Part shown: positions 14,195 through 27,879 of the stretch, in pieces
How the letters are laid out: every line of letters starts with the position of its first letter
Position numbering within the stretch: position 1 is the stretch's first letter
Position numbers and translations under genes: made by a program
Origin: Bacilli bacterium
Lineage (GTDB): Bacteria; Bacillota_I; Bacilli_A; RF39; UBA660
DNA length: 32,000 nt
Reading direction: 5' to 3'
NCBI GenBank assembly: GCA_017459425.1
Contig: JAFUCZ010000024.1
Location: 9,672 to 41,671 of the forward strand
The notes under the pieces: generated by a model
The model's database searches: none
Told to the model about the DNA's origin: nothing
The model's input: the letters and a program-made list of their open reading frames with translations, nothing else

Positions 14195-16870
14195 TTATTT
14201 TTTTATAATTTCATTTAGTTTTTTGATTATTATTTCTTTTTCTCTTGAACCATTTGTTTTAAATCTAAGTAGTGGAATATCACACTTTTTTAAAATATTA
14301 TTTTTTATTTGGTCTCTTATTATTTGTTTCTTTTTATTATGAAAAAAATATCCATCTACTTCTATTGCAAGTACAGGCTTTTTATCAAATTTATTAAATA
14401 TTAGAAAATCTATATGTGAATTATGATTAATAAATTCAATTTCTCTTTCATTTAAAATAGTTTTATCTTTAACTATTTTTCTTAATGGATATACTTTATC
14501 TAAAACATCATATGTACTATATTCATCCATTTGTAGTATTTCTTTTATAGTATTATACATAATAGTTTCTGAATCAAATTTAGAAAAAATAGTATGTGCT
14601 TTTAAATATTGTTTTTTAGTATCTTCATTTACTTTGTATAGTAAATCAAATATTGAGTTTATTTTACTTTCTACTTCTTCAAATTTATTATATTTAATAT
14701 AACTTATTAAATTAGAAATATTAGAATTATTACTTGATTTATATTCATCTGGTGTAACTAAAAATAGTTTATTAATAGCTCTAGATACTGCTACATTAAT
14801 AGAATTAGGATTATCTAAAAATTTTGTTATATTGTTTGCTACTGTAGAAAAAATAATAGTATCTTTTTCTCTTCCTTGAAATCCATGAACTGTATCTATA
14901 GATACATTTGGGCAATTAATTTCACCTATTAGATAATTTTTTTGGGCTTTATATGGAGTTATAATTCCTACCCGATCTTTATTTATATCTATTTTTTCAT
15001 TTGGTATTAGTTCATCTATTATAATTTCTGCTTGTCTTAAATTATACCAACTATTATCTCTTTTTCTAGCGTGATTACCTTTTACTGATTTATATTGTTT
15101 AATTGGCTCATTATTATTACTTTCTGATAGTATTATTAATTCATTATTATAGAATTTTTTATTACAAAAATTTATTATTTTAGGATGACATCTATAATGT
15201 TCTCTTAAAATGACTATATTATTAACTGTTTTTTTAGTTAAATCAAGTAAACTATTTTTAGTGTAATTAAATTTTTCTTCTATATCATATTTATTAAATA
15301 TTTCATTAAAATCTATATTTTTATCAACTATGTTAGGTAGTTGCTTAGAATCTCCTACTATTATTACGTTTTTAGCCATGCTAAGTGCAGCAAATGAAGA
15401 TACTAGATCTGCTTGAGAAGATTCATCTATAATCATGTAATCAAACATAAAAGATTTATTAACACAATTTATTAATGAATATGTAGTACTAAGTATTACA
15501 GGGTAATCTTTTATTAATTCTTGTGTATTATAAATTGTTTTTTTATCATATATTTTTTTATTATTATAATTTTTATATACATAATCTTTAAATAATTTCA
15601 TAGAAATATCTGTATATGTTTTAAATAATTTTTCATAATTTAAATTCTTTATATAATCTTTTTTTTCTTGTACTTGTGTTTCTAATTCTTTTATTCTTTT
15701 TTCGTAATATGAATATTCTAAATAATTTAAAATATCTACTATTTTATTACTAGTATCAATTTTATATTTTATTTTTGATTTAATTTGTATTAATTTACTA
15801 AAATATTCTTTTTTGTTTTTTTGTTTATTTAAAAACATTAAAACTTCATGTAATTTTTTTGAATCATAATCAGGTAAATTAATTACTTTTATATTAGATA
15901 TATCAATACTTTTTTTAAAATAATTATATTCTGTTTTTAATTCATCTAATTCTTGATTTGCTGCAGCTATTTCATTTTTTATATTTAAATATGAATCTAT
16001 ATCACTATTCATTATATTTAAATTATTTTTTATTTTATTTATTTCTTCGTCATTTAATTTCCAATTATCAGGATATAATTCATTAGATTGATTATTAATA
16101 AAATCTTTAATATTACTAGATTTACCTAATTTCGCACATATAGAAGATAAAGATTGTTTTTTTAATTTTTCATATACGTTATCAGTGGCACTATTATTAT
16201 TAGATATAACAGCTACACTATAATTTGAAATAATACAATTAGATATTATATTTAAAATTGTTTGTGTTTTACCTGTACCAGGTTGTCCTTCTATTGCACT
16301 AACATAATTATTAAGTGCATTATTTAATGCTTTTTTTTGACTTAAATTAAAACTAAATGGAAATATATTAGTATCTATTTTAGTGCCTTTATCTTTAATA
16401 CCATTAACATAATACTTAATGACTGAATCTTCATTTATAAATTTTAATTTATCATATATCTTACTTAATACACTATTATCTTCATTATTTGATATATCTT
16501 TAATAGTTAAATAACTTGATATTTCATTTAAATAATTATAAACATTTCTTACATTTATATTAGATAGCAAATTACTTTTAATTGTAACTTCAGAATTATT
16601 ATATAATTTAGTAGTATTATTACTAAAAAATACTTTTATATAATTATCAAACTTTAATATTTTTTCTACATTAATTAAAGTATTATATGAAGTTGATATT
16701 ATAGAATCTTTTATGATTATAGGATATTCTTTTATTATTAAATTAGATTTATTATATGTATATATTTTATCACTATAATTAACACTTACTAAATTATCAT
16801 TAATATCAACTACATTTTTAGTTATATCTTTATCATTATTTATTACTAATATCTTTTCTTCATTTAACAT
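14195..16870 (-). CDS. Superfamily 1 (Upf1/DNA2-like, AAA_11/AAA_12-type) helicase with a C-terminal DUF2726-like PD-(D/E)xK nuclease-fold domain
   Basis: Walker A GQPGTGKTQT, motif II MIIDESSQ, then VGDSKQLPN, LREHYRCHPKIINF, TVHGFQGREKD and NVAVSRA (motif VI). The C-terminal HIDFLIFNKFDKKPVLAIEVDGYFFH...RDQIKNNILKKCDIPLLRF resembles the DUF2726/Vsr-like endonuclease fold. It is on the same strand as the DGR RT and 54 nt downstream of it. Confidence 0.85.
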   Translation of the reverse strand: MLNEEKILVINNDKDITKNVVDINDNLVSVNYSDKIYTYNKSNLIIKEYPIIIKDSIISTSYNTLINVEKILKFDNYIKVFFSNNTTKLYNNSEVTIKSNLLSNINVRNVYNYLNEISSYLTIKDISNNEDNSVLSKIYDKLKFINEDSVIKYYVNGIKDKGTKIDTNIFPFSFNLSQKKALNNALNNYVSAIEGQPGTGKTQTILNIISNCIISNYSVAVISNNNSATDNVYEKLKKQSLSSICAKLGKSSNIKDFINNQSNELYPDNWKLNDEEINKIKNNLNIMNSDIDSYLNIKNEIAAANQELDELKTEYNYFKKSIDISNIKVINLPDYDSKKLHEVLMFLNKQKNKKEYFSKLIQIKSKIKYKIDTSNKIVDILNYLEYSYYEKRIKELETQVQEKKDYIKNLNYEKLFKTYTDISMKLFKDYVYKNYNNKKIYDKKTIYNTQELIKDYPVILSTTYSLINCVNKSFMFDYMIIDESSQADLVSSFAALSMAKNVIIVGDSKQLPNIVDKNIDFNEIFNKYDIEEKFNYTKNSLLDLTKKTVNNIVILREHYRCHPKIINFCNKKFYNNELIILSESNNNEPIKQYKSVKGNHARKRDNSWYNLRQAEIIIDELIPNEKIDINKDRVGIITPYKAQKNYLIGEINCPNVSIDTVHGFQGREKDTIIFSTVANNITKFLDNPNSINVAVSRAINKLFLVTPDEYKSSNNSNISNLISYIKYNKFEEVESKINSIFDLLYKVNEDTKKQYLKAHTIFSKFDSETIMYNTIKEILQMDEYSTYDVLDKVYPLRKIVKDKTILNEREIEFINHNSHIDFLIFNKFDKKPVLAIEVDGYFFHNKKKQIIRDQIKNNILKKCDIPLLRFKTNGSREKEIIIKKLNEIIKK

Positions 16871-16874
16871 AAAA

Positions 16875-16893
16875 ATACCTCATTCAGAGGTAT
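16875..16893 (-). promoter_or_regulatory. Hairpin overlapping the helicase Shine-Dalgarno sequence (terminator-like or SD-sequestering)
   Basis: The minus strand reads ATACCTC-TGAAT-GAGGTAT followed by TTTTT and ATG. The GAGGT RBS is the 3' arm of the stem. The same hairpin is conserved in the relic at 13488-13507. Confidence 0.35.
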
Positions 16894-16924
16894 TATATCA
16901 TCATTTTTATTATATTTAAAGATA

Positions 16925-17992
16925 TTATAAATAACTATCTATAATTTTTTCTATTTTTTTCTTATTACATCTATATGAATAATAATAATTCATCATAGAT
17001 GAAAAATATGTTTCAAATTTTAATTTTTCATTTTTGTATAAATATATTTTCTTTTTTACATTTTTCTTCATATTCTTAACAGAACTTCTTTTAACAATCA
17101 TTATTGTTTTTTTATTTTGTATAAAAAATTTATAACCTAGAAATGTAAAACCATATTTAGAACTCGTAATAAATGTTTTATTTATACTTATATCCAATTT
17201 ATATTCATTATTTAGTTTATTAATTATTATTTCTTTGCATTTTTTTAAATATAATAAATCATCACTAAAAATTAAAAAATCATCCATATACCTTACATAG
17301 TGTTTTAATTTTAATGTATGAATTATATAGTGATCTAGTCTGGATAAATAATATATTGACAAGCATTGACTACTTAAATTACCAATTGGTAAGCCTTTGC
17401 CGTATTCATATAAAGGTACTTTTAAATTTTTATTATTTTTAAGGATTTTTTTTATATTTGAATTTATATAATCATAATTAGTACTATCAATTATTTTACA
17501 TACAAAATTATATTCACAATCACTTAAATCTGTTTTTAACATTGCCTTTAATATGTCATGATCTATCCTATAAAAATACTTACTTATATCTATTTTTAAA
17601 ACATAAAATATTTTATTTTTTCTTTTATAAAACTCTATATATTTTTTTACTAAATTTATGGCATAATCGGTACCTTTGCCTATACGTGTAGCAACATTTC
17701 TATCATCTAATTTTTTTTCTAATTTAGGTATTAGATAATTAGTAGTATAATAATGATTTATTATTTTGTCGTTAATACTTAATGACATAATAAGCCTAGG
17801 TTTTGGTTCATATATTAAAAAAATATTGTATTTATGAATAAGTGGCTCTATACCATTTAATACATCAACAATATATTTTAAATGCTCTGATTTATGCATT
17901 TCCAAATTAATTAATTTATTTTTATTTTTTACTGTCTTTTTTAATGTTTGTTCATAAAATTCAAGTACATCACGTATTGTTATTTTTTTCAT
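16925..17992 (-). CDS. Diversity-generating retroelement reverse transcriptase
   Basis: RT motifs are present: the motif 4 region LPIGNLSSQCLSIYYL (the (I/L)GxxxSQ signature that distinguishes DGR RTs), motif 5 YVRYMDDFLIFS (YxDD), and FTFLGYKF. The 355-aa size is typical of DGR RTs. It overlaps the avd-like gene by 23 nt, and the TR and VRs lie nearby. Confidence 0.9.
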   Translation of the reverse strand: MKKITIRDVLEFYEQTLKKTVKNKNKLINLEMHKSEHLKYIVDVLNGIEPLIHKYNIFLIYEPKPRLIMSLSINDKIINHYYTTNYLIPKLEKKLDDRNVATRIGKGTDYAINLVKKYIEFYKRKNKIFYVLKIDISKYFYRIDHDILKAMLKTDLSDCEYNFVCKIIDSTNYDYINSNIKKILKNNKNLKVPLYEYGKGLPIGNLSSQCLSIYYLSRLDHYIIHTLKLKHYVRYMDDFLIFSDDLLYLKKCKEIIINKLNNEYKLDISINKTFITSSKYGFTFLGYKFFIQNKKTIMIVKRSSVKNMKKNVKKKIYLYKNEKLKFETYFSSMMNYYYSYRCNKKKIEKIIDSYL

Positions 17993-18335
17993 ATACTATC
18001 CAACCCCTAACTTTTTTATTTAAATCTAATAAAAGTGCGGTTTTTTCATGAAAAATAGATTCAGTAATATATCCCTTTTTATATGATTCTTCAAGTAATA
18101 AATCAATCATACTAATTTTTGATAAAATTTTACTTTGATTTAAAATACGAATATCTTTAAATTTATTAAGTGGTATATAATTAGATTCATAAATAAGTTC
18201 TATTATCTCATAGGTTAATGTTTTTATTTTATCTTTAAGTATTATTTCCCTATTTGGAAATCTACATAAAATAGTATCTATTTCAAACAGGAATGTTTTA
18301 GCAATTACAATTATTTTAAACTTATTTTCTTTCAT
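17970..18335 (-). CDS. avd: Avd-like accessory variability determinant (four-helix-bundle protein)
   Basis: 121 aa and predicted all-helical. FPNREIILKDKIKTLTYEIIELIYESN and IDLLLEESYKKGYITESIFHEKTALLLDLNKKVRGWI fit the four-helix-bundle / 23S rRNA IVS protein family pattern. It is translationally coupled to the RT. Confidence 0.75.
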   Translation of the reverse strand: MKENKFKIIVIAKTFLFEIDTILCRFPNREIILKDKIKTLTYEIIELIYESNYIPLNKFKDIRILNQSKILSKISMIDLLLEESYKKGYITESIFHEKTALLLDLNKKVRGWIVYEKNNNT

Positions 18336-18672
18336 TTAAAAAATTATCTATTACATCAATTAAATCATTTAATTGATTAAAATTTGCTTTCATTATTTTT
18401 TCTTGTATTTGATTAATTTTTAAATCAAGAATTAATTTGTTTTTTGATTCTATTAAATAATTACTGTAATTATCGTCTTCAAAATGTTTTATTTCATCAT
18501 TTAATTTATAATCAATATGTAATTCGTCTAATTTTGATTTAACCTTGTCAATACTACTTAGTGGAAAACCAACTCTACTATCTTTTAGTTTATAATTAAA
18601 TAAATTATGTAATATTGTTGCGTCATCATCAAATACTGAATAAAAATTACCTGCTTTTCTAAAAACTATCAT
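18322..18672 (-). CDS. Small MutS domain-I-like DGR accessory protein (MSL-type)
   Basis: MIVFRKAGNFYSVFDDDATILHNLFNYKLKDSRVGFPLSSIDKVKSKLDELHIDYKL aligns by eye with the MutS mismatch-binding N-terminus (LLFYRMGDFYELFYDDA...L...LT.R...PMAGIP......YL.KL...G..V). It overlaps avd by 14 nt. Confidence 0.55.
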   Translation of the reverse strand: MIVFRKAGNFYSVFDDDATILHNLFNYKLKDSRVGFPLSSIDKVKSKLDELHIDYKLNDEIKHFEDDNYSNYLIESKNKLILDLKINQIQEKIMKANFNQLNDLIDVIDNFLNERK

Positions 18673-18896
18673 TAATAAACCTCACTTCATAAATATTAGT
18701 AAGGAGTAAATAACTCCTTACCATTACAACATACTACATTTTTACAAGATTATAGAATCGGTACGTATACCTATCGTCTTGTACTATCTTTAGGGTTACC
18801 CCTAGGACATGTGCTGTCTCCTACAATTATCATATTATTTGCGAGAAAATAATACCCGAATAAATATTTGACTACATTGTAAACTGAAATTGTAGC
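18673..18896 (-). ncRNA. Non-coding spacer 3' of the TR, probably part of the DGR RNA (Sp-like region)
   Basis: There is no ORF, and it is locally richer in G+C than its surroundings. Minus-strand hairpins are TAGGG-GTAA-CCCTA (18791-18804, GNRA-type loop), GGTA-TACG-TACC (18760-18771, UNCG-type loop) and gtaaggagt-tatt-tactccttac (18699-18721). Confidence 0.4.
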
Positions 18897-19010
18897 AGTC
18901 TACAGGGCGGACAGAACCGGCATTTAACGCATTGTTGTTATTGACGTTTCCTGTAGAGTTCACATTGAACACATTATTGGAATTTGAAGAATTCGCACGA
19001 GGCGAAAGGG
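18897..19010 (-). repeat. DGR template repeat (TR), 114 nt
   Basis: It is homologous to 19520-19633 and 21317-21430. All mismatches are at plus-strand T, which is A on the minus (coding/template) strand. In the target reading frame it is loaded with AAY Asn codons (...ANSSNSNNVFNVNSTGNVNNNNALNAGSVRPV). The 60-aa ORF at 18835-19017 in the track is this element, not a gene. Confidence 0.92.
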
Positions 19011-19040
19011 AAAACAAAAGCCAAAACTCAGAAAACTATC

Positions 19041-19355
19041 TTACCCTAACACACCTGCCCTAATTCTATCTAATATATCTATAACTATAAACTTATATAC
19101 GTACTCAGTATATCTATTTATATTGTTTTCATATGTTTTATCTATATTTAAATTATCTACTATAATATAATTAATACTTAATTTTTGAAATTTTTTTAAT
19201 ACTACAGTAATATCATCATTATATTTTTTAATATAATTTAAAATAATTTTATCTATACCAAAACATTTATACCCAAATTTATTTTTACTAGTTTTAAATA
19301 GCAATACATAATTAGGATATATTTTTTTTAAAAACCAATATCTATTATTGTACAT
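19041..19355 (-). CDS. Hypothetical small protein between the DGR targets and the TR, possibly a second MutS-domain-I-like accessory
   Basis: 104 aa. YWFLKKIYPNYVLLFKTSKNKFGYKCFGIDKIILNYI loosely parallels the MutS N-terminus (YL.LK...P..LLFYR.GDFYE.F..DA......L), and SINYIIVDNL parallels the VAI.EQ region. The similarity is weak and seen by eye only. Confidence 0.4.
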   Translation of the reverse strand: MYNNRYWFLKKIYPNYVLLFKTSKNKFGYKCFGIDKIILNYIKKYNDDITVVLKKFQKLSINYIIVDNLNIDKTYENNINRYTEYVYKFIVIDILDRIRAGVLG

Positions 19356-19386
19356 ATATAATTTATTAGTAGAATCCTTTTCTACC

Positions 19387-19414
19387 CGTCCAGTCTTGAA
19401 TACAAGACCGGACG
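19387..19414 (-). promoter_or_regulatory. 12-bp hairpin downstream of DGR target 2
   Basis: The minus strand reads cgtccggtcttg-tatt-caagactggacg. All 12 positions pair on the minus strand, one of them as G-U. The plus-strand version has an A-C mismatch, so the structure is strand-specific. A second 6-bp hairpin (gtagaa/ttctac) follows at 19369-19386. No T-run follows either hairpin. Confidence 0.4.
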
Positions 19415-19442
19415 ATTCCTTTCATTTTATCTTTTAATTCAA

Positions 19443-20840
19443 TTATTCTGTGTAATTTAGAACAAATGGTTTTGATTGTGTTCCATCACCAGAGGTGATT
19501 GTAACACCTGATTTTAAGTAGACTACAGGGCGGACAGAACCGGCATCCAACGCATGGTCGCCAGTGACGTAGCCTGTAGAGCGCACAATGAACACAATAT
19601 AGGAATAAGAAGAAGTCGCACGAGGCGAAAGGGTCCATGTCCACATACTTGTATTTAATAACCAATCATTATTCTTACAGTCTGTATATGTATTTTGCCA
19701 ATTTGGTATACTTGAATCTGATACGTATCCTACAGTATATGATAAACATGCATCTCTATCATGTGTACTTCCACCACTTGTCGCATATGCATAATCACTT
19801 GGATATATTAGTCCTACTTTACCTGTCCAACGCGTTGTTCTATTTACTGTATCACTACAATGTGTTGCATTTGAACATTGCTTACCTGTACTACTTGATC
19901 GCTCCCAACTATATAGTAGTGACGCTGTTATTCTTCCATCCCAGATATTTGCACTTGGTGTATCTAATGAGCCTAAGTACCATGTTGCATTATCTATCAT
20001 ATTTTTACTTGCTGTATCGCTCAATCCTGTATTTGTAAAATCACAGTTTGCTGTATTATAATTTCCATATGTATAACATTTGCCACTTTCTGCATTCCAA
20101 TACAAACTATTATTTACTTCGATTGTATCATAATTTGACGCGCTGTTATCTCCACAGTTAACTATTGAATTTGCTGAATCTAAAGTTGAACCTGCAATAC
20201 ATCTTAAATCTTCGTTCTCTTCATATCCTGGATTTAATAATTTCATTAAATCTGCTCCATCATAATCAGTTCCATCAGTTAGTGTTGATTCACCCCATTG
20301 GTTTACACCATATCCTCTATTAACATCTACCGCTGATGTATCAAATGAATAATTTCCAATTGGGCTTTGAACAAGTTTTAGTCTTCCATCAAATACTCCT
20401 ATTATTCTCCATACTTGATCATTAAATCTTACATAGTTATCTGGATTACTTCCTATAAACCTTAATTCATTTTCGTGATCTGTTGTTGATATTCCCTCAC
20501 CCTCTGTATTTAATGCTTTTATATATGATTCTGGTGTTTTCGGATTTGTACAACTATATTCACCATTTGTTCCATTAATTCTTACATATCCGCTAGGACA
20601 ACCTACATTAACTTCACAGAATGTTGCTTTTGTATATAATTCATCTAATGCAGTTTGTACATCTTCTACATCATTTCCACTCGAATCTTTAAAGCCGGAA
20701 GAGCTATTATCATATCCAACGTTATCACTTTGGTAAAGAATCGTAGCACCATAGACAGTTGTACTTGCTACAATTATTCCAATTATTATTCCATAAAATA
20801 ATTTTTTGTTATTATTAATATTATTTATTATTTTCTTCAT
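19443..20840 (-). CDS. DGR target protein 2: membrane-anchored/secreted protein with a C-terminal variable-region domain
   Basis: N-terminal hydrophobic anchor (LFYGIIIGIIVASTTVYG). VR1 encodes ...WTLSPRATSSYSYIVFIVRSTGYVTGDHALDAGSVRPVVYL about 25 residues from the C-terminus. The W.L(R)SP...G.VRP(A/V) module resembles C-type-lectin-fold/DUF6273-like ligand-binding domains used by DGR targets. An AGGAGGAAATAATT-ATG RBS follows 12 nt after the stop of target 1. Confidence 0.85.
   Translation of the reverse strand: MKKIINNINNNKKLFYGIIIGIIVASTTVYGATILYQSDNVGYDNSSSGFKDSSGNDVEDVQTALDELYTKATFCEVNVGCPSGYVRINGTNGEYSCTNPKTPESYIKALNTEGEGISTTDHENELRFIGSNPDNYVRFNDQVWRIIGVFDGRLKLVQSPIGNYSFDTSAVDVNRGYGVNQWGESTLTDGTDYDGADLMKLLNPGYEENEDLRCIAGSTLDSANSIVNCGDNSASNYDTIEVNNSLYWNAESGKCYTYGNYNTANCDFTNTGLSDTASKNMIDNATWYLGSLDTPSANIWDGRITASLLYSWERSSSTGKQCSNATHCSDTVNRTTRWTGKVGLIYPSDYAYATSGGSTHDRDACLSYTVGYVSDSSIPNWQNTYTDCKNNDWLLNTSMWTWTLSPRATSSYSYIVFIVRSTGYVTGDHALDAGSVRPVVYLKSGVTITSGDGTQSKPFVLNYTE
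19457..20534 (-). repeat. Copy A of the ~1.08-kb duplicated VR-bearing module
   Basis: Collinear with 21254-22334 at an offset of 1797-1800 nt, with one 3-nt indel. The encoded proteins are roughly 95 percent identical outside the VR by eye. Confidence 0.9.
19520..19633 (-). repeat. DGR variable repeat VR1
   Basis: I count 17 differences from the TR across 18901-19010, plus one at 18899. All are at TR adenines on the coding strand. The flanking invariant blocks are ccctttcgcctcgtgcg (5') and ccggttctgtccgccctgtag (3'). Confidence 0.92.
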
Positions 20841-20852
20841 AATTATTTCCTC

Positions 20853-23800
20853 CTAATTTAGCATCTCGTACAACTTGTCTATCATACATTGTACATTACT
20901 ACATCCAAGTGTACTATTAATATGTTCTATATTTTCTGCCATTACTCTTGTCCATTTAGCATATAATACTCCACTGTTATCTGTAAAAATAGTAGCAGAC
21001 ACTTGTGAAGACAATTTACCACTAGAATCAATTACTTTGGTTCCAGTTCCATTCTTGCCTGTATAATATCCACCAAATGCATATCCTTTTTTTGTTGGTA
21101 TTGTTATTCCATTACTACTTGTTGTAATTTGTGTAGTAGCTTCACTATTTAAATAATATCCTGTATTATATTTTTCATATATACTTGTTGTTCCTGTTGT
21201 AGTAGCATTTCTATTATCTAATTTTACTGAATATGTATCTGATGTTGGATCAGTTAAAACAAATGGTTTTGATTGTGTTCCATCACCAGAGGTGATTGTA
21301 ACACCTGATTTTAAGTAGACTACAGGGCGGACAGAACCGGCAAAGAACGCATCGGTGCTAATGACGTATCCTGTAGAGTGCACATAGAACACACTATTGG
21401 AATCTGAAGAAATCGCACGAGGCGAAAGGGTCCATGTCCACACGCCTGTATTTAATAACCAATCATTATTCTTACAGTCTGTATATGTATTTTGCCAATT
21501 TGGTATACTTGAATCTGATACATATCCTACAGTATATGATAAACATGCATCTCTATCATGTGTACTTCCTCCACTTGTTGCATATGCATAATCACTTGGA
21601 TATATTAGTCCTACTTTTCCTGTCCAACGCGTTGTTCTATTTACTGTATCACTACAATGTGCATTATTTTGTGTACATTGCTTACCTGTACTACTTGATC
21701 GCTCCCAACTATATAGTAGTGACGCTGTTACTCTTCCATCCCAGATATTTGCACTTGGTGTATCTAATGAGCCTAAGTACCATGTTGCATTATCTATCAT
21801 ATTTTTACTTGCTGTATCGCTCAATCCTGTATTTGTAAAATCACAGTTTGCTGTATTATAGTTTCCATATGTATAACATTTGCCACTTCCTGCATTCCAA
21901 TACAAACTATTATTTACTGAAACTGTATCATAATTTGACGCACTGTTATCTCCGCAGTTAACTATTGAATTTGTACTATCTAAAGTTGAACCTGCAATAC
22001 ATCTTAAATCTTGATTACTCTCATATCCTGGATTTAATAATTTCATTAAATCTGCTCCATCATAATCAGTTCCATCAGTTAGTGTTGATTCACCCCATTG
22101 GTTTACACCATACCCTTTATTTACATCTACCGCTGATGTATCAAATGAGTAACTACCTATTGGACTTTGAACAAGTTTTAATCTTCCATCAAATACTCCT
22201 ATTATTCTCCATATTTGATTATTAAATCTTACATAGTTATCTGGATTACTTCCTATAAATCTTAATTCATTTTCGTGATCTGTTGTTGATATTCCCTCAC
22301 CCTCTGTATTTAATATTTTAATTACAGATTCAGGATCGTTACCAACATATGTCCAATTTGCAGTATAACTTCTATTACCTGTTGAACCTGTAGGTATAGT
22401 TACATTTTTGCTTGGAGTATTTCCATTAGACCCAGTCCATCCATCAAATAAATAACCTGTTTTTTTTGGATTATTTAATGTGATTGCACTGCTTTCTTTT
22501 GTGTAACTTGTTGGATTTGTAGCACTTCCACCATTTAATGTGTATTCAATTGTATATGATATTGGTTCACATACTCCATATAACGCTACATCCGTTATTG
22601 GTGTTATTGTTTCGCCACTTGTATGTTGAATAGTTGTACCATTTTCATTTGCTGTCCATCCACAAGTATATCCTGTTTTTTCTATTGTTGGAAGTGTTAT
22701 ATTTCCACTACCACTAAATCTAGCAAATAAAGTAATATCTTCATCATGTATCCAATTTGATTCTTCATCTGTATATTCGTTTATACTTGGAGTTAATACT
22801 GGTTTATTTGTATTATCTAGCATTAGATCTCCACCATTTTGTAATGTATACCAACCATTAAATGAATATGAAGTAGTTAAGTTTTCATTACTACTTACTG
22901 TAGCGCCATTTGATTTTCTTGAATTTGATAATTCAAATCCACTTACTGTGTATTCTTTTTGTGGTACTACTATTTCTTCTGGATTAATATCTGCTGCATC
23001 GTATGTTACTTCAACACTAGCAGTTGGGTTATTTGTTGCTCCATTTTTATTTAAAGTAATAGTATAGGTATTTGCTATCCAATGTGCTGTTATAGTTTCT
23101 GATTTTTTAGCTAAAGTTTCAGGAGTAACCTTTACATCATTTGACGTATACCAGCCATCAAATGTGTATCCAGTTTTACTAACTGTAGGTAATTCACCAT
23201 AAGAAGTATTATATTCTATTCTTTTTGTAATTACTTCTTCTCCATTATTAGGATCAAATGTTATAGTGTAAATATCTGTTGTGTATATTGCATATAGTGT
23301 ATAAATTGGATATTCATTTAAATCTACTGTTAATTTATCTCCTTTACGATATTTAATTCTTGTACCATTTTGTTCATCTGTCCAACCACTAAATGTATAT
23401 CCTTCTTTTACTGGTTCTTCTAGTACGTTATTAACTAAGTTTAAAGTTAAATCTTCACCCTCATATTTTATTTGATCTGTTACACTGCTTCCGCCATTTT
23501 CTTGATAAGTAATATAGTATACTTTTCTAAAATCAAATACATTTGTTACATTTATTGTAGATGTACTTGGATTTGTTGTAGTATAAGTTACATATAAATC
23601 TAGTGTAGATTTTTTTTCAATTACATCTTTGAAATTAAATATAGTACCATTTGCATATTTTATAGTTGTAATTAATCCATTATCGTTTGAAGTTGTAGTC
23701 ATGTTATATATAGTTTGATCGAAATCACCATTGTTTGCAATAGTTACTTTATATGTTATAGATGAATTACTATTAGGTAAAACAAACCCACTAGTTATTT

Positions 23801-24005
23801 TATCAACATTATATTCGCTTTCATATTTTATTTCTGCACCATTTAATGTACTACCACTTAAAACTATTCCATCTACTCTAATATCAGATATAGGTCTGAT
23901 TTTTACTTCTGATGTGATAGACAAAGAAGTAGAAAGTGCTGAATATGCTACTGTTGTAAGCATTACAAAAATAACGCTTAAAAAAATCATAATTTTCTTC
24001 TGCAT
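20853..24005 (-). CDS. DGR target protein 1: large secreted surface protein with Listeria-Bacteroides (Flg_new-type) repeats and an internal variable-region domain
   Basis: Signal/anchor MQKKIMIFLSVIFVMLTTVAYSAL. There are at least six G(Y)xFxGW(Y/T)...G repeat units (GYTFSGWTDEQNGT, GYTFDGWYTSND, SFNGWYTLQNGG, GYTCGWTANENGT, GYLFDGWTGSNGN, GYAFGGYYTGKNGTG). The VR2-encoded segment is WTLSPRAISSDSNSVFYVHSTGYVISTDAFFAGSVRPVVYL. Confidence 0.85.
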   Translation of the reverse strand: MQKKIMIFLSVIFVMLTTVAYSALSTSLSITSEVKIRPISDIRVDGIVLSGSTLNGAEIKYESEYNVDKITSGFVLPNSNSSITYKVTIANNGDFDQTIYNMTTTSNDNGLITTIKYANGTIFNFKDVIEKKSTLDLYVTYTTTNPSTSTINVTNVFDFRKVYYITYQENGGSSVTDQIKYEGEDLTLNLVNNVLEEPVKEGYTFSGWTDEQNGTRIKYRKGDKLTVDLNEYPIYTLYAIYTTDIYTITFDPNNGEEVITKRIEYNTSYGELPTVSKTGYTFDGWYTSNDVKVTPETLAKKSETITAHWIANTYTITLNKNGATNNPTASVEVTYDAADINPEEIVVPQKEYTVSGFELSNSRKSNGATVSSNENLTTSYSFNGWYTLQNGGDLMLDNTNKPVLTPSINEYTDEESNWIHDEDITLFARFSGSGNITLPTIEKTGYTCGWTANENGTTIQHTSGETITPITDVALYGVCEPISYTIEYTLNGGSATNPTSYTKESSAITLNNPKKTGYLFDGWTGSNGNTPSKNVTIPTGSTGNRSYTANWTYVGNDPESVIKILNTEGEGISTTDHENELRFIGSNPDNYVRFNNQIWRIIGVFDGRLKLVQSPIGSYSFDTSAVDVNKGYGVNQWGESTLTDGTDYDGADLMKLLNPGYESNQDLRCIAGSTLDSTNSIVNCGDNSASNYDTVSVNNSLYWNAGSGKCYTYGNYNTANCDFTNTGLSDTASKNMIDNATWYLGSLDTPSANIWDGRVTASLLYSWERSSSTGKQCTQNNAHCSDTVNRTTRWTGKVGLIYPSDYAYATSGGSTHDRDACLSYTVGYVSDSSIPNWQNTYTDCKNNDWLLNTGVWTWTLSPRAISSDSNSVFYVHSTGYVISTDAFFAGSVRPVVYLKSGVTITSGDGTQSKPFVLTDPTSDTYSVKLDNRNATTTGTTSIYEKYNTGYYLNSEATTQITTSSNGITIPTKKGYAFGGYYTGKNGTGTKVIDSSGKLSSQVSATIFTDNSGVLYAKWTRVMAENIEHINSTLGCSNVQCMIDKLYEMLN
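21254..22334 (-). repeat. Copy B of the ~1.08-kb duplicated VR-bearing module
   Basis: See copy A. It includes VR2 and the identical downstream block ...ggtgattgtaacacctgattttaagtagac. Confidence 0.9.
21317..21430 (-). repeat. DGR variable repeat VR2 (internal to target 1)
   Basis: I count 13 differences from the TR across 18901-19010, plus one at 18899. All are at TR adenines. VR1 and VR2 differ from each other at many of the same positions. Confidence 0.92.
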
Positions 24006-24029
24006 ATTCTAACCTCCTATACTATTATC

Positions 24030-24058
24030 ACTATATCTAATTTTACTATATTTGTCGA
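24030..24058 (-). promoter_or_regulatory. Possible promoter of the DGR target operon
   Basis: The minus strand reads TCGACA, a 17-nt spacer, then TATAGT, about 25 nt upstream of the ATG at 24005. The AGGAGG RBS is at 24013-24018. Confidence 0.3.
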
Positions 24059-24167
24059 ATTTTATCAATAGATAAGACATATTTTCACCATATATTATTT
24101 ACTATTTTACACTTTGTATGTAATTTTTTGTAAATATAATTTTAAAACTGTTTTTTAAATAAAAAAA

Positions 24168-24186
24168 CTAACATTTAATATGTTAG
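24168..24186 (-). terminator. Rho-independent terminator after the 24230-25228 gene
   Basis: The minus strand reads ctaacat-attaa-atgttag followed by ttttttt. Confidence 0.5.
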
Positions 24187-24229
24187 AAATTTAAGATTAA
24201 AAAATATTTTTATAAAGCAAAAGAAATGA

Positions 24230-25228
24230 TTAATCCATTTCTTTTCTAGTTACTTTATATTCATAATTTTGAGTATCCATAATTACAAATTTAGATTCAT
24301 TTTCATTTACTTTTACATAAATTATAGGTTTTTCTAAATTATTTCTTACATCCAATAATTCTTTAAAACTATTAATAGATACAACAGGTGCATTACTATC
24401 AATAAATGAATTATTAGATTCTGTAATATATGAATCATTTTCTCTTAAAAGTTTTTTAATATATCTTTCATATTTACTTTCTTTACTAAGTCTACTTTTA
24501 ATTTTAAGTGCTAGTATTACTAGAGAAACAAAACCTAAAGCAGCAAGCATAATAGATATACCAAACATTACTTTATTAAGTGGTGATTCACTTGTTCTTA
24601 AAGAGTATGGTTCATTACTAGAAATATCAGAGCTTTTAGAAATATTAATCATTTGTCTAGAAAGAGGTATTTCTACAGTCATTTTCTTACTACCTACTAT
24701 ATCGTTTTCTTTACTCTCATACATTAAATCATAATCGATAACTAAATTACAATTAGCGCTTATTCCATAATCACTTTTAAATTTATTTGCTAAATTATTA
24801 TATTTAGTATAATCAATTTTTATTTGATCAGATACATCTATATTTTCACTAGTATTAGCATCTTGTTTTAATATATCATTTTCAGAATAAATTACTTTAT
24901 CGTTATTTTCTGTATCAACTATTTTTATATCAGCAACAATTTTTTTATTTATATCAAAAGTATCTTTAATGTCATAAGTTGCCTTATAATTGAAATTTAA
25001 ATCAATATAATCTACTATACTAGAAATATATTGCATTCCTTCATCTAAATAATCCCTATTGTAATAAGTTTTATCATTTAAATATACTTTGTATTTAACC
25101 CCACCATTTTCTTTAAAATCAACCACTGTTGATATTTGTTGCTTTGATTGCATAAAGAAATAAAAACTTAATATTCCTAATATTACTGTCAAAACAACCA
25201 TTGCCAACTCGCTTTTACTCTTTTCCAT
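24230..25228 (-). CDS. Bitopic membrane protein associated with the SipW-type peptidase (possibly DUF5305-like)
   Basis: 332 aa with an N-terminal TM helix (LAMVVLTVILGILSFYFFM), an extracytoplasmic segment of about 200 aa, a second TM helix (VMFGISIMLAALGFVSLVILAL) and a cytoplasmic tail. It lies 12 nt downstream of the signal peptidase gene. The family assignment is recollection only. Confidence 0.5.
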   Translation of the reverse strand: MEKSKSELAMVVLTVILGILSFYFFMQSKQQISTVVDFKENGGVKYKVYLNDKTYYNRDYLDEGMQYISSIVDYIDLNFNYKATYDIKDTFDINKKIVADIKIVDTENNDKVIYSENDILKQDANTSENIDVSDQIKIDYTKYNNLANKFKSDYGISANCNLVIDYDLMYESKENDIVGSKKMTVEIPLSRQMINISKSSDISSNEPYSLRTSESPLNKVMFGISIMLAALGFVSLVILALKIKSRLSKESKYERYIKKLLRENDSYITESNNSFIDSNAPVVSINSFKELLDVRNNLEKPIIYVKVNENESKFVIMDTQNYEYKVTRKEMD

Positions 25229-25240
25229 TTTTATCCTCCT

Positions 25241-26365
25241 TTAAAACATTTCATTTAACCAAATACTTGGCAAACCTACTTTATCAACGATAAATATTAC
25301 TTTTCCAAGAACATCATCGTCCCCAACAACACCAGCATCTACCTGGTCATTGTTATCACCTTTTGTAGAATAAAATCTATAATTTTGTCTTTCATACACT
25401 TTATAAATTCTATGTGATATCAATTTATTTTCATGTCTGAATACAATTATGTCGCCAACTTCTAATTTGGATTTTTCAGTATCACGTAGTTTTTTTAGAA
25501 TTACAACATCACCTTTTTCAAAAGTACCTAACATTGAATTAGATCCAATAACTAAAGATTGATATTTAAAAAAGCCTGAATTTAAACCCACTAAAGAAAG
25601 TAATACAACTAAACAAATACCAAAAACAATGTTATTTCTGTGTCTGTTTTTTGGTTTTTCAAGTTTTTTCATTCTATTATTAAGTAACATAAAAGAAATA
25701 AATGTTGGTAATACTATCATAAATACTGATGAAACATAAGTACCCATATTAGGTACAAATGGAACAATATAAATATACAATTCCATTATTAATCTATAAA
25801 TAATTCCATTATAAAAATCACTCTTCATTGCAAATATTGTCATCAGTACATTTCTACTAATTCCATCTATTACTACAATTGCTATAAATTTATATAATTG
25901 TTCTTTATCAGCTAAATTATAATTAGTGAATCCAATACTAATATCTAGCATTACAAACACTAAAAAACTCATAAAAATAACTAATTTATTGTTATCTGAT
26001 TTTTTGATAAATTGATATCTTAAAACTTCACTTGCGATTATAACTGTCGATACCGGAATAATGTTTTTAACAAAGTTTACTACCGACCAAGAATAAATTG
26101 TACGTGCGAATGAAATAAAAAGACCAAGTAAGTAAATAAATAAGAAATAAATAATTAAATAAATGAGTAAACTTTTTAAAATTTCTTTATGATTCGAAGG
26201 TTTTTTTATATCTATTCCTATAGCAAAATAAACTATAGCAAAAGATACACATAAAAAGATAAGATATTTATCATGAGTGAACAATGCAGGTTGCAAGAAG
26301 CTTATCAATATTACTACAAGCATTAATATTTCAATAATTAATAACTTTTTTACCCCACTTTTCAT
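25241..26365 (-). CDS. sipW: SipW-like (archaeal/ER-type) signal peptidase I fused to a large polytopic N-terminal membrane domain
   Basis: The C-terminal ~120 aa (GSNSMLGTFEKGDVVIL...VGDIIVF...ISHRIYKV...STKGDNNDQVD) parallel B. subtilis SipW blocks (SGSMEP.F.TGD / VGDVITF / THRI / TKGDNN...D). The first ~250 aa are multiple hydrophobic helices that ordinary SipW lacks. Confidence 0.75.
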   Translation of the reverse strand: MKSGVKKLLIIEILMLVVILISFLQPALFTHDKYLIFLCVSFAIVYFAIGIDIKKPSNHKEILKSLLIYLIIYFLFIYLLGLFISFARTIYSWSVVNFVKNIIPVSTVIIASEVLRYQFIKKSDNNKLVIFMSFLVFVMLDISIGFTNYNLADKEQLYKFIAIVVIDGISRNVLMTIFAMKSDFYNGIIYRLIMELYIYIVPFVPNMGTYVSSVFMIVLPTFISFMLLNNRMKKLEKPKNRHRNNIVFGICLVVLLSLVGLNSGFFKYQSLVIGSNSMLGTFEKGDVVILKKLRDTEKSKLEVGDIIVFRHENKLISHRIYKVYERQNYRFYSTKGDNNDQVDAGVVGDDDVLGKVIFIVDKVGLPSIWLNEMF

Positions 26366-26400
26366 AACTCACCTTCTCACTCTTATCTACTCTAAAAATA

Positions 26401-26429
26401 ATTATATTAAATTATTTTTATTTTGTCAA
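26401..26429 (-). promoter_or_regulatory. Consensus sigma-A promoter upstream of the signal peptidase gene
   Basis: The minus strand reads TTGACA, a 17-nt spacer, then TATAAT. Confidence 0.55.
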
Positions 26430-26452
26430 ATACAATAAATTGATTAAAAAAA

Positions 26453-26472
26453 ACATAAGTAAATACTTATGT
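26453..26472 (-). terminator. Rho-independent terminator after the 26472-27092 gene
   Basis: The minus strand reads acataagt-attt-acttatgt followed by tttttttt. Confidence 0.6.
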
Positions 26473-27092
26473 TAATTATTATAATCTTGTCCATATATTA
26501 GAACAGCTGTTATATTATTAAAATGCACACTATGACTTGGTAATACTTGCGGTTCATCTCTTCTTACATATTCAATAGTAACCATTAATTCACGTGTTCC
26601 ATTATTTTTTTCTAATTTATCGCCTATTTTTATATCTGTACCATCTGCATATGTGAATTTAATTTCAATGTCATTTATTAGATTTTTTCTTGAAATATCA
26701 TCTAATGTTTCAGCAGAATTCCAAATTATATTTCCTACTTTTATATCAGTTTTACCTGTTAATATAGCATTAATATCACCTTTATTTTTTACATTCCATT
26801 TATATATCACTTTATCGCCTGGTGCTTTTAGTAATGCGTGTGGCAATGTAATTATTGTTGAATTTGGATTGAATGTTAAATAATCTTGTTCAACACTTGC
26901 ATACTCTAATATTGTAATAGATGAACCACTATCTAATAGATTAAAACTGACATCCCAATTATTTGAATTATTTTCAGATAGCATATTATTACTAATAGCA
27001 GGTTTTCTAGTAAAGGTAGCAAAAATAATTGTTACTATTACTACACCAACTATAAGTATTGATAATAATGTATTTTTTTCTTTCTTCGACAT
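26472..27092 (-). CDS. Secreted beta-rich protein, paralog of 27178-27819 (putative minor fibre/matrix subunit, TasA/camelysin-like context)
   Basis: N-terminal anchor/signal (LLSILIVGVVIVTIIFATF). It is colinear with its neighbour: LPHALLKAPGDKVIYKWNVKNKGDINAILTGKTDIKVG...NDIEIKFTYADGT...LMVTIEY versus LPMVTLKAPGDKVEYVWAVENTGDINAVLTGKTDITLG...NDIDVKFTYADGT...LKVTVEY. Confidence 0.55.
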   Translation of the reverse strand: MSKKEKNTLLSILIVGVVIVTIIFATFTRKPAISNNMLSENNSNNWDVSFNLLDSGSSITILEYASVEQDYLTFNPNSTIITLPHALLKAPGDKVIYKWNVKNKGDINAILTGKTDIKVGNIIWNSAETLDDISRKNLINDIEIKFTYADGTDIKIGDKLEKNNGTRELMVTIEYVRRDEPQVLPSHSVHFNNITAVLIYGQDYNN

Positions 27093-27114
27093 AACACACC
27101 TCTATCATAAATTA

Positions 27115-27143
27115 ATGATATTAAATTATTTTAAATTTGTCAA
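27115..27143 (-). promoter_or_regulatory. Sigma-A-type promoter of the 26472-27092 gene
   Basis: The minus strand reads TTGACA, a 17-nt spacer, then TATCAT. Confidence 0.5.
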
Positions 27144-27154
27144 TAAAAAGAAAA

Positions 27155-27178
27155 AAACTTAAGTATAAACTTAAGTTT
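27155..27178 (-). terminator. Rho-independent terminator after the 27178-27819 gene
   Basis: 10-bp stem aaacttaagt/acttaagttt, followed by a T-run on the minus strand. Confidence 0.6.
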
Positions 27179-27819
27179 TATGCATTGTCTTGTCCGTAAG
27201 TTAATGCTGCTGTGATGTTACTAAATGTTACATCTTTACTTGGTAAAGTTTGAGTTTCACCAGTTTTCTTGTATTCAACTGTAACTTTTAAAAGTGCTTT
27301 ACCAGTTGTTTTAGCTAACTTATCAGTATTTGCTGTAATAGCAGTTCCATCAGCATAAGTGAATTTAACATCAATATCGTTAATTAATGCTGCTTTACCA
27401 TTAGCATCTAAAGTTTCATCATTTGCCCAAGTTGCAGCACCTAAAGTGATATCAGTTTTACCAGTTAAAACTGCATTAATATCACCAGTATTTTCAACAG
27501 CCCAAACATATTCAACTTTATCACCAGGTGCTTTTAAAGTAACCATTGGTAAAGTTACGATTGTTGAGTCAGAAGTAAATGATAATGCTGCATCTTGTGC
27601 CATAGTAGCATATCCAGTTGTAGTAATAGGTTGGTAAGTACTTCCATCTTTAGTAGTATCTAAAGCTCTAAAACGTACCTTCCAGCTTGATGCAATATTT
27701 TGCACTGTAGCACTACCATTAATATTTAATGTTTGAGTAAGTGCTGCATAAGCAACTGTCATTGAAACAAGTCCTACAACTAATACTCCTAGTAAAACAT
27801 TCTTTGTCTTTTCGTTCAC
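27178..27819 (-). CDS. Secreted beta-rich protein, putative major subunit of a SipW-dependent fibre/matrix (TasA/camelysin-like context)
   Basis: The signal-like N-terminus ...LLGVLVVGLVSMTVAYAALTQTLNINGSATV precedes an Ala/Thr-rich mature part. Its codon usage is visibly different (less AT-biased) from its neighbours. It has its own promoter and terminator. I place the start at the GTG at 27819 (MNEKTKN...) because AAAGGAG lies 8 nt upstream and inside the track's 27837 start. Confidence 0.55.
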   Translation of the reverse strand: MNEKTKNVLLGVLVVGLVSMTVAYAALTQTLNINGSATVQNIASSWKVRFRALDTTKDGSTYQPITTTGYATMAQDAALSFTSDSTIVTLPMVTLKAPGDKVEYVWAVENTGDINAVLTGKTDITLGAATWANDETLDANGKAALINDIDVKFTYADGTAITANTDKLAKTTGKALLKVTVEYKKTGETQTLPSKDVTFSNITAALTYGQDNA

Positions 27820-27850
27820 AATTATTACTCCTTTCATATTTTACAATTTA

Positions 27851-27879
27851 ATGATACTTTATTTATTTTTTTTTGTCAA
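27851..27879 (-). promoter_or_regulatory. Sigma-A-type promoter of the 27178-27819 gene
   Basis: The minus strand reads TTGACA, a 17-nt spacer, then TATCAT. These are the same hexamers as at 27115-27143. Confidence 0.5.

Follow-up and report, generated by a model that had tools for sequence, protein, structure and literature searches.

A diversity-generating retroelement target beside an AbpX/Tafi-type fibre locus in a Bacilli genome: a candidate variable accessory subunit

Introduction

Loci of the AbpX type, reported from Thermoproteota, Bacillota, and Chloroflexota (Sleutel et al., bioRxiv 10.64898/2026.01.04.697558), carry a structurally distinct signal peptidase I with ten transmembrane (TM) segments (TIGR02228) and a DUF5305 accessory protein, in which a sandwich outside the cell is combined with two TM helices and a domain in the cytoplasm. 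Such loci also encode minor subunits, along with proteins that are predicted to be tips or anchors and to be joined by donor strands. A related locus is described here from a window of 32,000 nucleotides (the whole stretch of DNA analysed; positions 9,672 to 41,671 of contig JAFUCZ010000024.1, GenBank assembly GCA_017459425.1, Bacilli bacterium). It encodes two small secreted proteins (A and B), a signal peptidase (C), and a DUF5305 protein (D), and lies beside two proteins, T1 and T2, that are targets of a diversity-generating retroelement (DGR). The reading favoured here, with moderate confidence, is that A and B form an AbpX-type fibre processed by C and D and that T1 is a strand-tethered accessory subunit, whose Flg_new repeats form a stalk for a binding domain varied by the DGR.

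Two further fibre systems offer points of comparison. In Haloarcula, the peptidase TafD of the Tat-fimbriae (tafi) cluster is required for processing of the subunit TafA, and a DUF5305 protein, TafG, is encoded in the same cluster (PMC11821415). As quoted in that paper, TasA of Bacillus subtilis polymerises by means of an N-terminal donor strand, with TapA contributing a strand of its own and located at one end. Literature that mentions DUF5305, retrieved by full-text search, concerns archaeal fibres throughout.

DGRs have been tied to fibres of another kind. In Bacteroides, tip pilins encoded at the end of Type V pilus operons can be DGR targets; these are hybrids, in which a stalk-pilin-like N-terminal domain is joined to a variable head (Macadangdang et al., bioRxiv 10.1101/2024.11.15.621889). 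The accessory proteins of these DGRs are Avd and Msl, and a second class of targets comprises small variable proteins without a pilin-like domain (bioRxiv 10.1101/2024.11.15.621889). A full-text literature search returned no paper combining DGRs with TasA, SipW, camelysin, or AbpX, in agreement with the initial annotation of the window, in which no description of a DGR-variable adhesin on a TasA-like scaffold was known.

Putative fibre subunits and a shared N-terminal signature

Four genes lie upstream of the DGR targets, as first annotated, and their open reading frames (ORFs) were confirmed at 27178..27819 (A), 26472..27092 (B), 25241..26365 (C), and 24230..25228 (D). These genes, T1, T2, and the DGR parts are all on the minus strand. 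A, the putative major subunit, comprises 213 amino acids (aa) from a GTG start. Its ORF extends to an ATG at 27837; homologues begin MNEKTKN or MTEKTKN, and the start at 27819 therefore fits. B is its paralogue, as had been proposed (50% identity, E 3e-60), and is regarded as a minor subunit with a degenerate N-terminal strand.

Homologues of A form 116 clusters, none of which has a curated name, and identity falls to around 35%. Despite this divergence, the N terminus of the family, KNVLLxVLIVGLVSMTVAYAAL(S/T)xTLxIxxSAKV, is 85%–99% conserved per position, a range that also describes signature positions −3 to +15 among the 117 family members. By sequence homology, A and B are putative AbpX-like fibre subunits of the TasA superfamily. 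An hhalign comparison of the A-family profile with the AbpX precursor (sequence from the supplement of bioRxiv 10.64898/2026.01.04.697558) gave a probability of 94% (E 1.4e-7) over 141 columns, and the mature protein only gave 82% (E 1e-5). The hidden Markov model (HMM) of the family scored 29.5 bits against the precursor, 18.3 against mature AbpX, and 14.7 against mature AbpX without its strand, the best of 2000 shuffles reaching 9.4. A profile search of the PDB with the family placed AbpX (9sj2) at the top with an E value of 0.02, and four of the six matches were AbpX or TasA (the remaining three of these four being a second AbpX entry and the TasA entries 5of1 and 8aur). The homologue P0022 passes the camelysin/TasA model of Pfam, PF12389 (26.3 against a threshold of 22.5), and 19 of 61 A-family members have sub-threshold matches; A and B themselves stay under the threshold. 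NCBIfam yielded no family for A or B, and a phmmer search of PDB sequences with A returned no match. The AlphaFold 2 (AF2) model of A, with a predicted local distance difference test (pLDDT) score of 89, comprises a TM helix (3–27), a disordered stretch (29–38), and a beta-sandwich (48–210).

The pattern TVAY[AS]AL[TS]..L.I has just two matches in the six-frame translation, one in A (TVAYA↓ALTQTLNI, 27721..27759, from residue 21; arrows mark the predicted cut) and one in T1 (TVAYS↓ALSTSLSI, 23916..23954, from residue 18). The chance expectation is 5e-8, or 2e-4 for a loose form of the pattern, and the motif, already noted as common to these two proteins, proves to be a hallmark of both of their families. 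T1 matches the register of the subunit family: T−3, [VI]−2, [AG]−1, Y0, [AS]+1, [AGS]+2, L+3, L+7, I+9, and [AV]+13. Relative to the proposed cleavage site (AYA↓A in A), position −3 is A or G and position −1 is A or S, both being small in more than 90% of the subunit family and of the family defined by the N-terminal module of T1 (N-module; see below).

The predicted signal peptide of AbpX ends …LTAIGLTYA, and the mature protein starts QWSETLSLSATISTG, of which W2–I12 is the donor strand by cryogenic electron microscopy (cryoEM) (bioRxiv 10.64898/2026.01.04.697558). The signature aligns with this predicted cut site and cryoEM donor strand (…GLTYA↓QWSETLSLSATI), and both HMMER and hhalign set MTVAYA↓ALTQTLNINGSATV of A onto AIGLTYA↓QWSETLSLSATIS of AbpX in the same register. 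Because of this register match, we infer that the signature has two parts: first the c-region of a specialised signal peptide with its predicted cut site, and after that a donor strand. Conservation runs for 15 residues beyond the cut in an alternating manner (L+7, I+9, A+13, and V/F+15), in register with the subunits and the AbpX donor strand. In both the subunit and N-module families, no other part is as strongly conserved as this strand region, yet it is disordered or of low confidence in the monomer models.

The donor-strand feature fails in B. Its strand reads …IIFATFTRKPAISNN, with Pro at strand position +7, where Leu is found in 98% of the family (the other 2% being B and two B-type relatives, P0012 and P0013), and it has no AXA (AYA↓A) cleavage site. 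B may thus be unable to donate a strand and is a candidate cap or membrane-anchored base.

Signal peptidase and DUF5305 protein

C appears to be a dedicated signal peptidase I in which a polytopic region (aa 1–262) is combined with a catalytic domain of the endoplasmic reticulum (ER)/archaeal S26 type (aa 247–360). It had been described as a SipW-like, ER-type peptidase, and only the second half of that description holds: residues 247–360 pass TIGR02228 of NCBIfam (archaeal/ER-type signal peptidase I; 74.8 bits, cut-off 51.85), whereas the SipW equivalog model NF046067 fails (62.3 bits, cut-off 190), and the protein is polytopic. The catalytic domain accounts for only the last third of C and is preceded by nine hydrophobic segments (about nine TM segments). 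The catalytic residues Ser277 (GSNSM), His318 (SHRI), and Asp337 (KGDNN) are invariant in four orthologues that are 40%–41% identical.

The membrane domain of C (25580–26365; around 260 residues) matches no Pfam family. Its polar residues N101, P104, E113, R116, N172, Y190, R191, and E195 are invariant in orthologues of around 40% identity, and the domain could have a role beyond anchoring. A CPBP or exosortase-like identity was considered for it and dropped, as there is no invariant His or Cys.

D, a putative accessory subunit of the signal peptidase, matches PF17231 (DUF5305) with 54.5 bits against a cut-off of 29. It had been taken for a bitopic membrane protein; two TM segments are predicted (8–26 and 223–241), however, giving the layout TM segment, extracellular domain, TM segment, and cytoplasmic tail. 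Scans of A to D with Pfam and NCBIfam found no TapA-family match, and an NCBIfam scan of the remaining proteins of the locus returned repeat or peptidase models only.

The large target T1 and its N-terminal module

T1 (20853..24005; 1050 aa) starts with the signal/strand signature, which is followed by the N-terminal beta-sandwich module, Flg_new repeats (119.8 bits), the domain bearing the variable repeat (VR), a further repeat-like region, and a conserved C-terminal tail. The N-module HMM matches T1 with an E value of 6e-62, and the AF2 model of the T1 N terminus (pLDDT 90.5) has an eight-strand sandwich at residues 42–161 (23523..23882), connected by a lower-confidence linker to an N-terminal helix.

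The first 165 or so residues of T1 define a large family. A full HMMER search found 1,202 representative clusters at E≤1e-3, of which 500 also reach E≤1e-10; a word-indexed search with T1 1–200 had found only five relatives. Among the 150 matches listed, the module is always N-terminal, starting within the first 25 or so residues and ending by about residue 210, and the proteins that carry it range from 86 to 6,456 aa. The N termini of the family consist of a hydrophobic h-region followed by [ST][IV][AG]YS[AG]L-x3-L-x-I-[ST]-x-[ED]-A-x-x-R-x3-DIR[VI]T. Neither Pfam nor NCBIfam has a model that matches this region of T1, and a scan of IMG/VR for the module gave no match.

Aligned by hhalign, the N-module and subunit families match with a probability of 97.9% (E 3.6e-13) over 106 columns, mostly through the signal peptide and strand, and BLASTP of A against T1 1–200 aligns only the signal and the motif. 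The signal region of T1 contains no cysteine that could form a lipobox, and a regular-expression search found no LPXTG motif in A, B, T1, or T2. As T1 lacks LPXTG or any other recognisable wall anchor, it must be retained by other means if it is to stay on the surface.

A protein from another sample, P0157 (3,538 aa), joins an N-module to a C-terminal domain that is 58% identical to the variable domain of T1.

The retroelement and its second target

The DGR is genuine, and both targets bear its mark, as had been claimed for them. The template repeat (TR; 18894..19010) contains 31 adenines, and mismatches between it and the VRs fall almost exclusively on these: 14 of 15 for the VR of T1 (aa 859–898; 21314..21430) and 18 of 19 for that of T2 (aa 403–442; 19517..19633), the remaining one lying in the 3′ end of the repeat. 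The two VRs differ from each other at 17 positions, all 17 of which are TR adenines. The machinery (16925..18672) comprises a reverse transcriptase (16925–17992; RVT_1, 66.4 bits), an Avd ORF (17970–18335) with a weak model match (E 0.0048), and an Msl-like ORF (18322–18672) with a borderline match to MutS_I (20.3 bits; gathering score 20.6). On the other side of the TR, a second small ORF (19041–19355) belongs to no family and is unrelated to the Msl-like ORF.

An inverted repeat, AGGTG-ATTGTAA-CACCT, is found in identical form just downstream of each VR (19493–19509 and 21290–21306), a position that presumably corresponds to the target-side hairpin of other DGRs. As it lies within the region duplicated between T1 and T2, its conservation carries no independent weight.

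L013, from another sample of this species, shares 99.57% identity with the window over 11.3 kb (window positions 16500–27750). Of the 49 positions at which the two differ, T1 and T2 account for 47, the T2 VR alone contributing 16. In L013, the VRs of T2 and T1 are the same, both being identical to the T1 VR of the window; the cause is either activity of the DGR or gene conversion, or else the paralogues were collapsed during assembly.

T2 (19443..20840; 465 aa) consists of a signal peptide, a segment of around 70 residues, and a copy of the T1 variable domain, with 91% identity between T2 103–461 and T1 558–917 by BLASTP. It has no Pfam match and no match among PDB sequences (phmmer), and scans of JGI metagenomes and IMG/VR for the variable domain gave no match. 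An HMM scan likewise found no N-module in T2. A looser version of the signature had been proposed for this protein, and of this the cleavage-site half stands: TTVYG↓ATILY is not significant alone, but the single retrieved relative of the T2 N terminus, P0282 (a 111-aa fragment, 54% identical over the N-terminal region), reads SATAYAATILFQ, in which SATAYA↓ATILFQ is the cleavage-site half of the motif. Plausibly, then, T2 is served by the same peptidase while lacking the docking strand.

The C-terminal tail of T1 (aa 1011–1050, 20856–20975; …RVMAENIEHINSTLGCSNVQCMIDKLYEMLN) resembles the segment that follows the T2 signal (aa 37–72, 20625–20732; …NVGYDNSSSGF…VEDVQTALDELYTKA). Tails of the T1 type also end 7 of 104 long N-module proteins, as well as a 160-aa Flg_new protein (4067–4531 of contig L014) encoded directly before two T2-like genes. 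One possibility is that the tail and the T2 segment dock with each other; another is that they represent a shuffled module.

Conservation of the locus

Related loci were scanned with two HMMs, one of the subunit and one of the T1 module, and by phmmer with the peptidase, DUF5305 protein, reverse transcriptase, Avd, and variable domain of the window as queries. The gene order of the window—subunit(s), polytopic peptidase, DUF5305 protein, (subunit), N-module protein—is also found in L001, L005 (a metagenome-assembled genome (MAG) of an uncultured Bacillales), L002–4/L018 (from human gut), L019, L020, L021, and L022. With contigs that end too early left out, nine loci have enough sequence downstream of the DUF5305 gene, and an N-module protein follows that gene in eight of these (the window, L001, L005, L002/L018, and L019–L022); in the ninth, L024, the position is taken only by a motif-bearing protein of 281 aa. 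The linkage on which the initial annotation had placed weight is thus seen well beyond the window.

The peptidase and DUF5305 genes are coupled more widely still, the second following the first in 10 of 10 further full-length peptidase loci and in L001–L005. Identity to the peptidase of the window is 27%–44% for L015–L024 (over the best-matching segment) and 40%–41% for L001, L002, and L005; at loci with an N-module protein after the DUF5305 gene, it is 30%–44%.

A locus of another type lies at 1642–5971 of L014, where small secreted proteins (with N termini of the …TYA↓IYR type), a 139-aa S26 peptidase (46.7 bits), the 160-aa Flg_new protein, and the two T2-like genes are encoded; no reverse transcriptase is seen on this 6.3-kb contig. 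By eye, the small secreted proteins had seemed TasA-like, but no Pfam model was passed, and L014 is therefore used only as an instance of T2-like genes adjoining an S26 peptidase.

Proposed assembly of T1 into the fibre and alternative readings

Gene content, homologies, motif conservation, synteny, and the adenine-mutagenesis signature of the DGR are observed; the position of cleavage, assembly by donor strands, the place of T1 on the fibre, and its function as an adhesin are deduced from them. In the favoured model, A would be exported by Sec and cut at AYA↓AL by C, assisted by D, after which the freed strand (ALTQTLNINGSATV) would insert into the beta-sandwich of the next subunit, giving rise to a fibre. 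B, with its strand broken by proline and no good cleavage site, would be a minor subunit, probably terminal or anchoring. T1 would be the cognate large accessory subunit, in which the signal, cleavage site, and strand recur (AYS↓ALSTSLSITSEVKI) ahead of a small beta-sandwich. Processed by the same peptidase, it would be tethered non-covalently to the fibre by strand complementation, whether at a fibre end (as tip or nucleator) or along the fibre, and would project its Flg_new-repeat stalk with a ligand-binding domain, the last 40 or so residues of which the DGR would rewrite. The cell would thus probably display an ever-changing adhesin on a fibre. T2 would represent a stalk-less copy of the variable domain with a compatible cleavage site and no docking strand, either released or docked secondarily, perhaps on the T1 tail.

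Several observations weigh against this model, and the alternatives are best considered alongside them. The first group concerns the folded parts of the proteins and the reference itself. A comparison of predicted folds with TasA had been proposed at the outset, and by Foldseek it was not positive: neither the A model nor that of the T1 N-module has TasA or AbpX among the 50 PDB matches listed. Both retrieve only generic beta-sandwiches there (best E 6e-3 for A; E≥6e-3 for T1), and the matches listed include adaptin ear, carbohydrate-binding modules, and cupins, which neither support nor exclude a TasA fold; the homology of the A family to AbpX is claimed from the HMM, hhalign, and PDB profile searches and not from Foldseek. 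The N-module profile does not detect AbpX (1 bit). When signal and strand are removed, the hhalign probability between the N-module and subunit families drops to 49%, for a 30-column motif only (LPxxSSITYxVxIxNxGxxD against KAPGDxVxYxFxVxNxGxIxA), and homology of the globular domains is therefore not claimed. The likeness to the subunits first remarked on in the initial 150 or so residues of T1 is accordingly solid for the signal and strand and weak for the globular part. Finally, the AbpX cleavage site used as reference is itself a PrediSi prediction.

A second group concerns where N-module proteins are found. At least six paralogous N-module proteins of 650–860 aa occur in MAG CALVSY01 (an uncultured Bacilli; L006–L011), and no peptidase gene lies within 10 kb of these six; the module is not restricted to the locus. 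Four of the six genes are within about 250 bp of a contig end, and the genome-wide profile scan from which these data come covers only seven loci from two MAGs. The MAG suggests a multigene family of strand-tagged surface proteins.

The weak globular likeness, the undetected AbpX, and the N-module proteins far from any peptidase locus would all be expected if T1 and the subunits had only a secretion signal in common. T1, and perhaps T2, would then be a substrate of the same peptidase, with the residues after the cut acting as a recognition determinant, and T1 would be released or stuck to the wall and would not enter the fibre; that T2-like proteins have just the cleavage-site half of the motif also suits this account. 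It is nevertheless considered unlikely. Signal peptidase I enzymes normally read residues only to about +1, whereas 15 residues after the cut are conserved here, alternating and in register with both the subunits and the AbpX donor strand. Family scans and the LPXTG search found no wall-binding domain in T1, and in the AlphaFold 3 models of the AbpX preprint, strand complementation is what connects AbpX with its tip and anchor proteins (bioRxiv 10.64898/2026.01.04.697558).

A further point against strand tethering is that AF2 extends the TM helix of T1 through the motif region, making residues 2–31 a single helix, which is the appearance expected of an uncleaved signal anchor. With the motif counted in, the hydrophobic stretch spans around 20 residues, and T1 has no other anchor. 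On this account, the N terminus of the T1 family would be a type II membrane anchor with the sandwich as its membrane-proximal base; the adhesin would sit on the membrane, and its neighbourhood would reflect co-regulation. It is then hard to see why −3 and −1 should be kept small, and the Tyr invariant, in more than 250 sequences from the two families. The homologue of this segment in AbpX, moreover, serves as a signal peptide; the mature protein starts directly behind it and forms the fibril, and a dedicated peptidase is encoded two genes upstream in nine loci. An uncleaved anchor is thus judged quite improbable.

No reverse transcriptase was found at the other loci scanned. The DGR is therefore a lineage-specific addition, a point that would be equally in order if a DGR cassette and its target had merely landed by an unrelated fibre locus, the motif being an ordinary likeness between signal peptides. 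Such a coincidence is very hard to credit given the chance expectation of the motif and the placement of an N-module protein after the DUF5305 gene in eight of nine loci, which is independent of any DGR. It is equally at odds with P0157, in which an N-module is joined to a domain of the T1 variable type in another sample, and with the T2-like genes that adjoin a different S26 peptidase locus in L014.

Strand tethering of T1 to an AbpX-type fibre is therefore retained as the preferred reading. A broader extension of it can be offered only tentatively: the N-module might serve as a general, sortase-independent display system of low-GC Bacilli, by which giant adhesins, cut by the specialised polytopic peptidase with its DUF5305 partner, are plugged by donor strand into a common TasA/AbpX-like fibre. 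In the present lineage, the DGR would hypermutate the tip, and T2 would be a free putative variable lectin, maybe held on the T1 tail via the shared …VQxx[LI]DxLY module.

Genomic surroundings

The window is chromosomal DNA of 17%–35% G+C, with housekeeping neighbours of Bacilli type (MreB, SpoIID, an M23 peptidase, BipA, and an MraY-like transferase). Sigma-70-like matches lie on the minus strand just upstream of A (27851–27879; 11/12), B (27115–27143; 11/12), and C (26401–26429; 12/12), these being the three best of the region, and a further pair precedes T1 (24030–24068, minus strand; 10/12). The total number of such matches in the region is no higher than in shuffles. A, B, C, and T1 could have separate promoters. 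Directly downstream of the DGR reverse transcriptase, 14195–16870 encodes an 891-aa superfamily 1 helicase (AAA_11/AAA_12) fused to a DUF2726/restriction endonuclease-like domain, which occupies the same place in L013.

Comparison with known systems

The initial annotation had likened the locus to tapA-sipW-tasA of B. subtilis. This is sound insofar as the locus belongs to the TasA superfamily and combines a signal peptidase of its own, of ER type, with an accessory protein and a secreted subunit for which a beta-sandwich is predicted and a donor strand proposed—features shared with the B. subtilis operon as far as that system is quoted in PMC11821415. In contrast to that operon, however, the peptidase of the window fails the SipW model and has around nine TM segments as opposed to one or two, a DUF5305 protein is present, no TapA match was found, and A and B fall under the PF12389 threshold. 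The kit of the AbpX/Tafi type is matched gene for gene, whereas that of tapA-sipW-tasA is matched only in principle. By its sequence relationships, the locus is thus of AbpX/Tafi type within the TasA superfamily and is not a tapA-sipW-tasA orthologue.

With AbpX loci, it shares a homologous subunit, the same register of cleavage site and donor strand, a polytopic TIGR02228 peptidase, a DUF5305 protein, a minor subunit, and a large strand-bearing neighbour. The subunits, however, are only distantly related to AbpX of P. abyssi (E 0.02 in the PDB search), and at mature positions 2 and 4, they have Leu/Phe rather than Trp and Gln/Thr rather than an acidic residue, respectively; owing to these changes, calcium-mediated complementation may not apply to them. 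No LPXTG or S-layer homology anchor, sortase, or cyclic di-GMP genes were seen among the genes examined here, and the accessory protein bears a DGR-diversified domain, which is unmentioned in the AbpX preprint (bioRxiv 10.64898/2026.01.04.697558). The haloarchaeal tafA–G cluster (PMC11821415) is alike in locus make-up: it has a signal peptidase, a DUF5305 protein, several subunits, and a proposed tip–adaptor–shaft–anchor order by strand exchange. It differs in that its subunits are exported by the twin-arginine translocation (Tat) pathway and that TafD has four TM segments, with the catalytic domain N-terminal.

If the favoured reading is true, T1 would provide the first link between DGR hypermutation and donor-strand fibres of the TasA superfamily, as well as a concrete candidate tip protein for the recently described AbpX-type loci of Bacillota. 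Its N-module, a very large unannotated family, may explain how giant surface proteins are retained without LPXTG. T1 would also add an independently evolved example of a fibre that is assembled by strands and bears a DGR-variable head, the Type V pili of Bacteroides being the first; together, the two would point to a general principle behind adaptive adhesion among gut bacteria.

Those Bacteroides pili indeed offer the closest parallel in function. In both systems, a variable gene stands at the end of a fibre operon and encodes a hybrid protein with an N-terminal domain (pilin-like in Bacteroides), a linker, and a DGR-variable head, and assembly is by strand insertion after proteolysis, although in the window this is proposed only. 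The DGRs correspond in having Avd and a weak MutS-like (Msl) accessory, and T2 parallels the small class of targets without a pilin-like domain. Type V pilins, in contrast, are lipoproteins cut at an arginine in a diderm, whereas the putative fibre of the window is of the TasA/AbpX type, its subunits would be cut by signal peptidase I, and it comes from a low-GC, Bacilli-type genome; T1 has no lipobox cysteine in its signal, and Pfam and NCBIfam scans found no pilin family. The DGR-diversified tips of Type V pili are, by analogy, the closest functional counterpart of T1, on a fibre system to which that of the window is unrelated.

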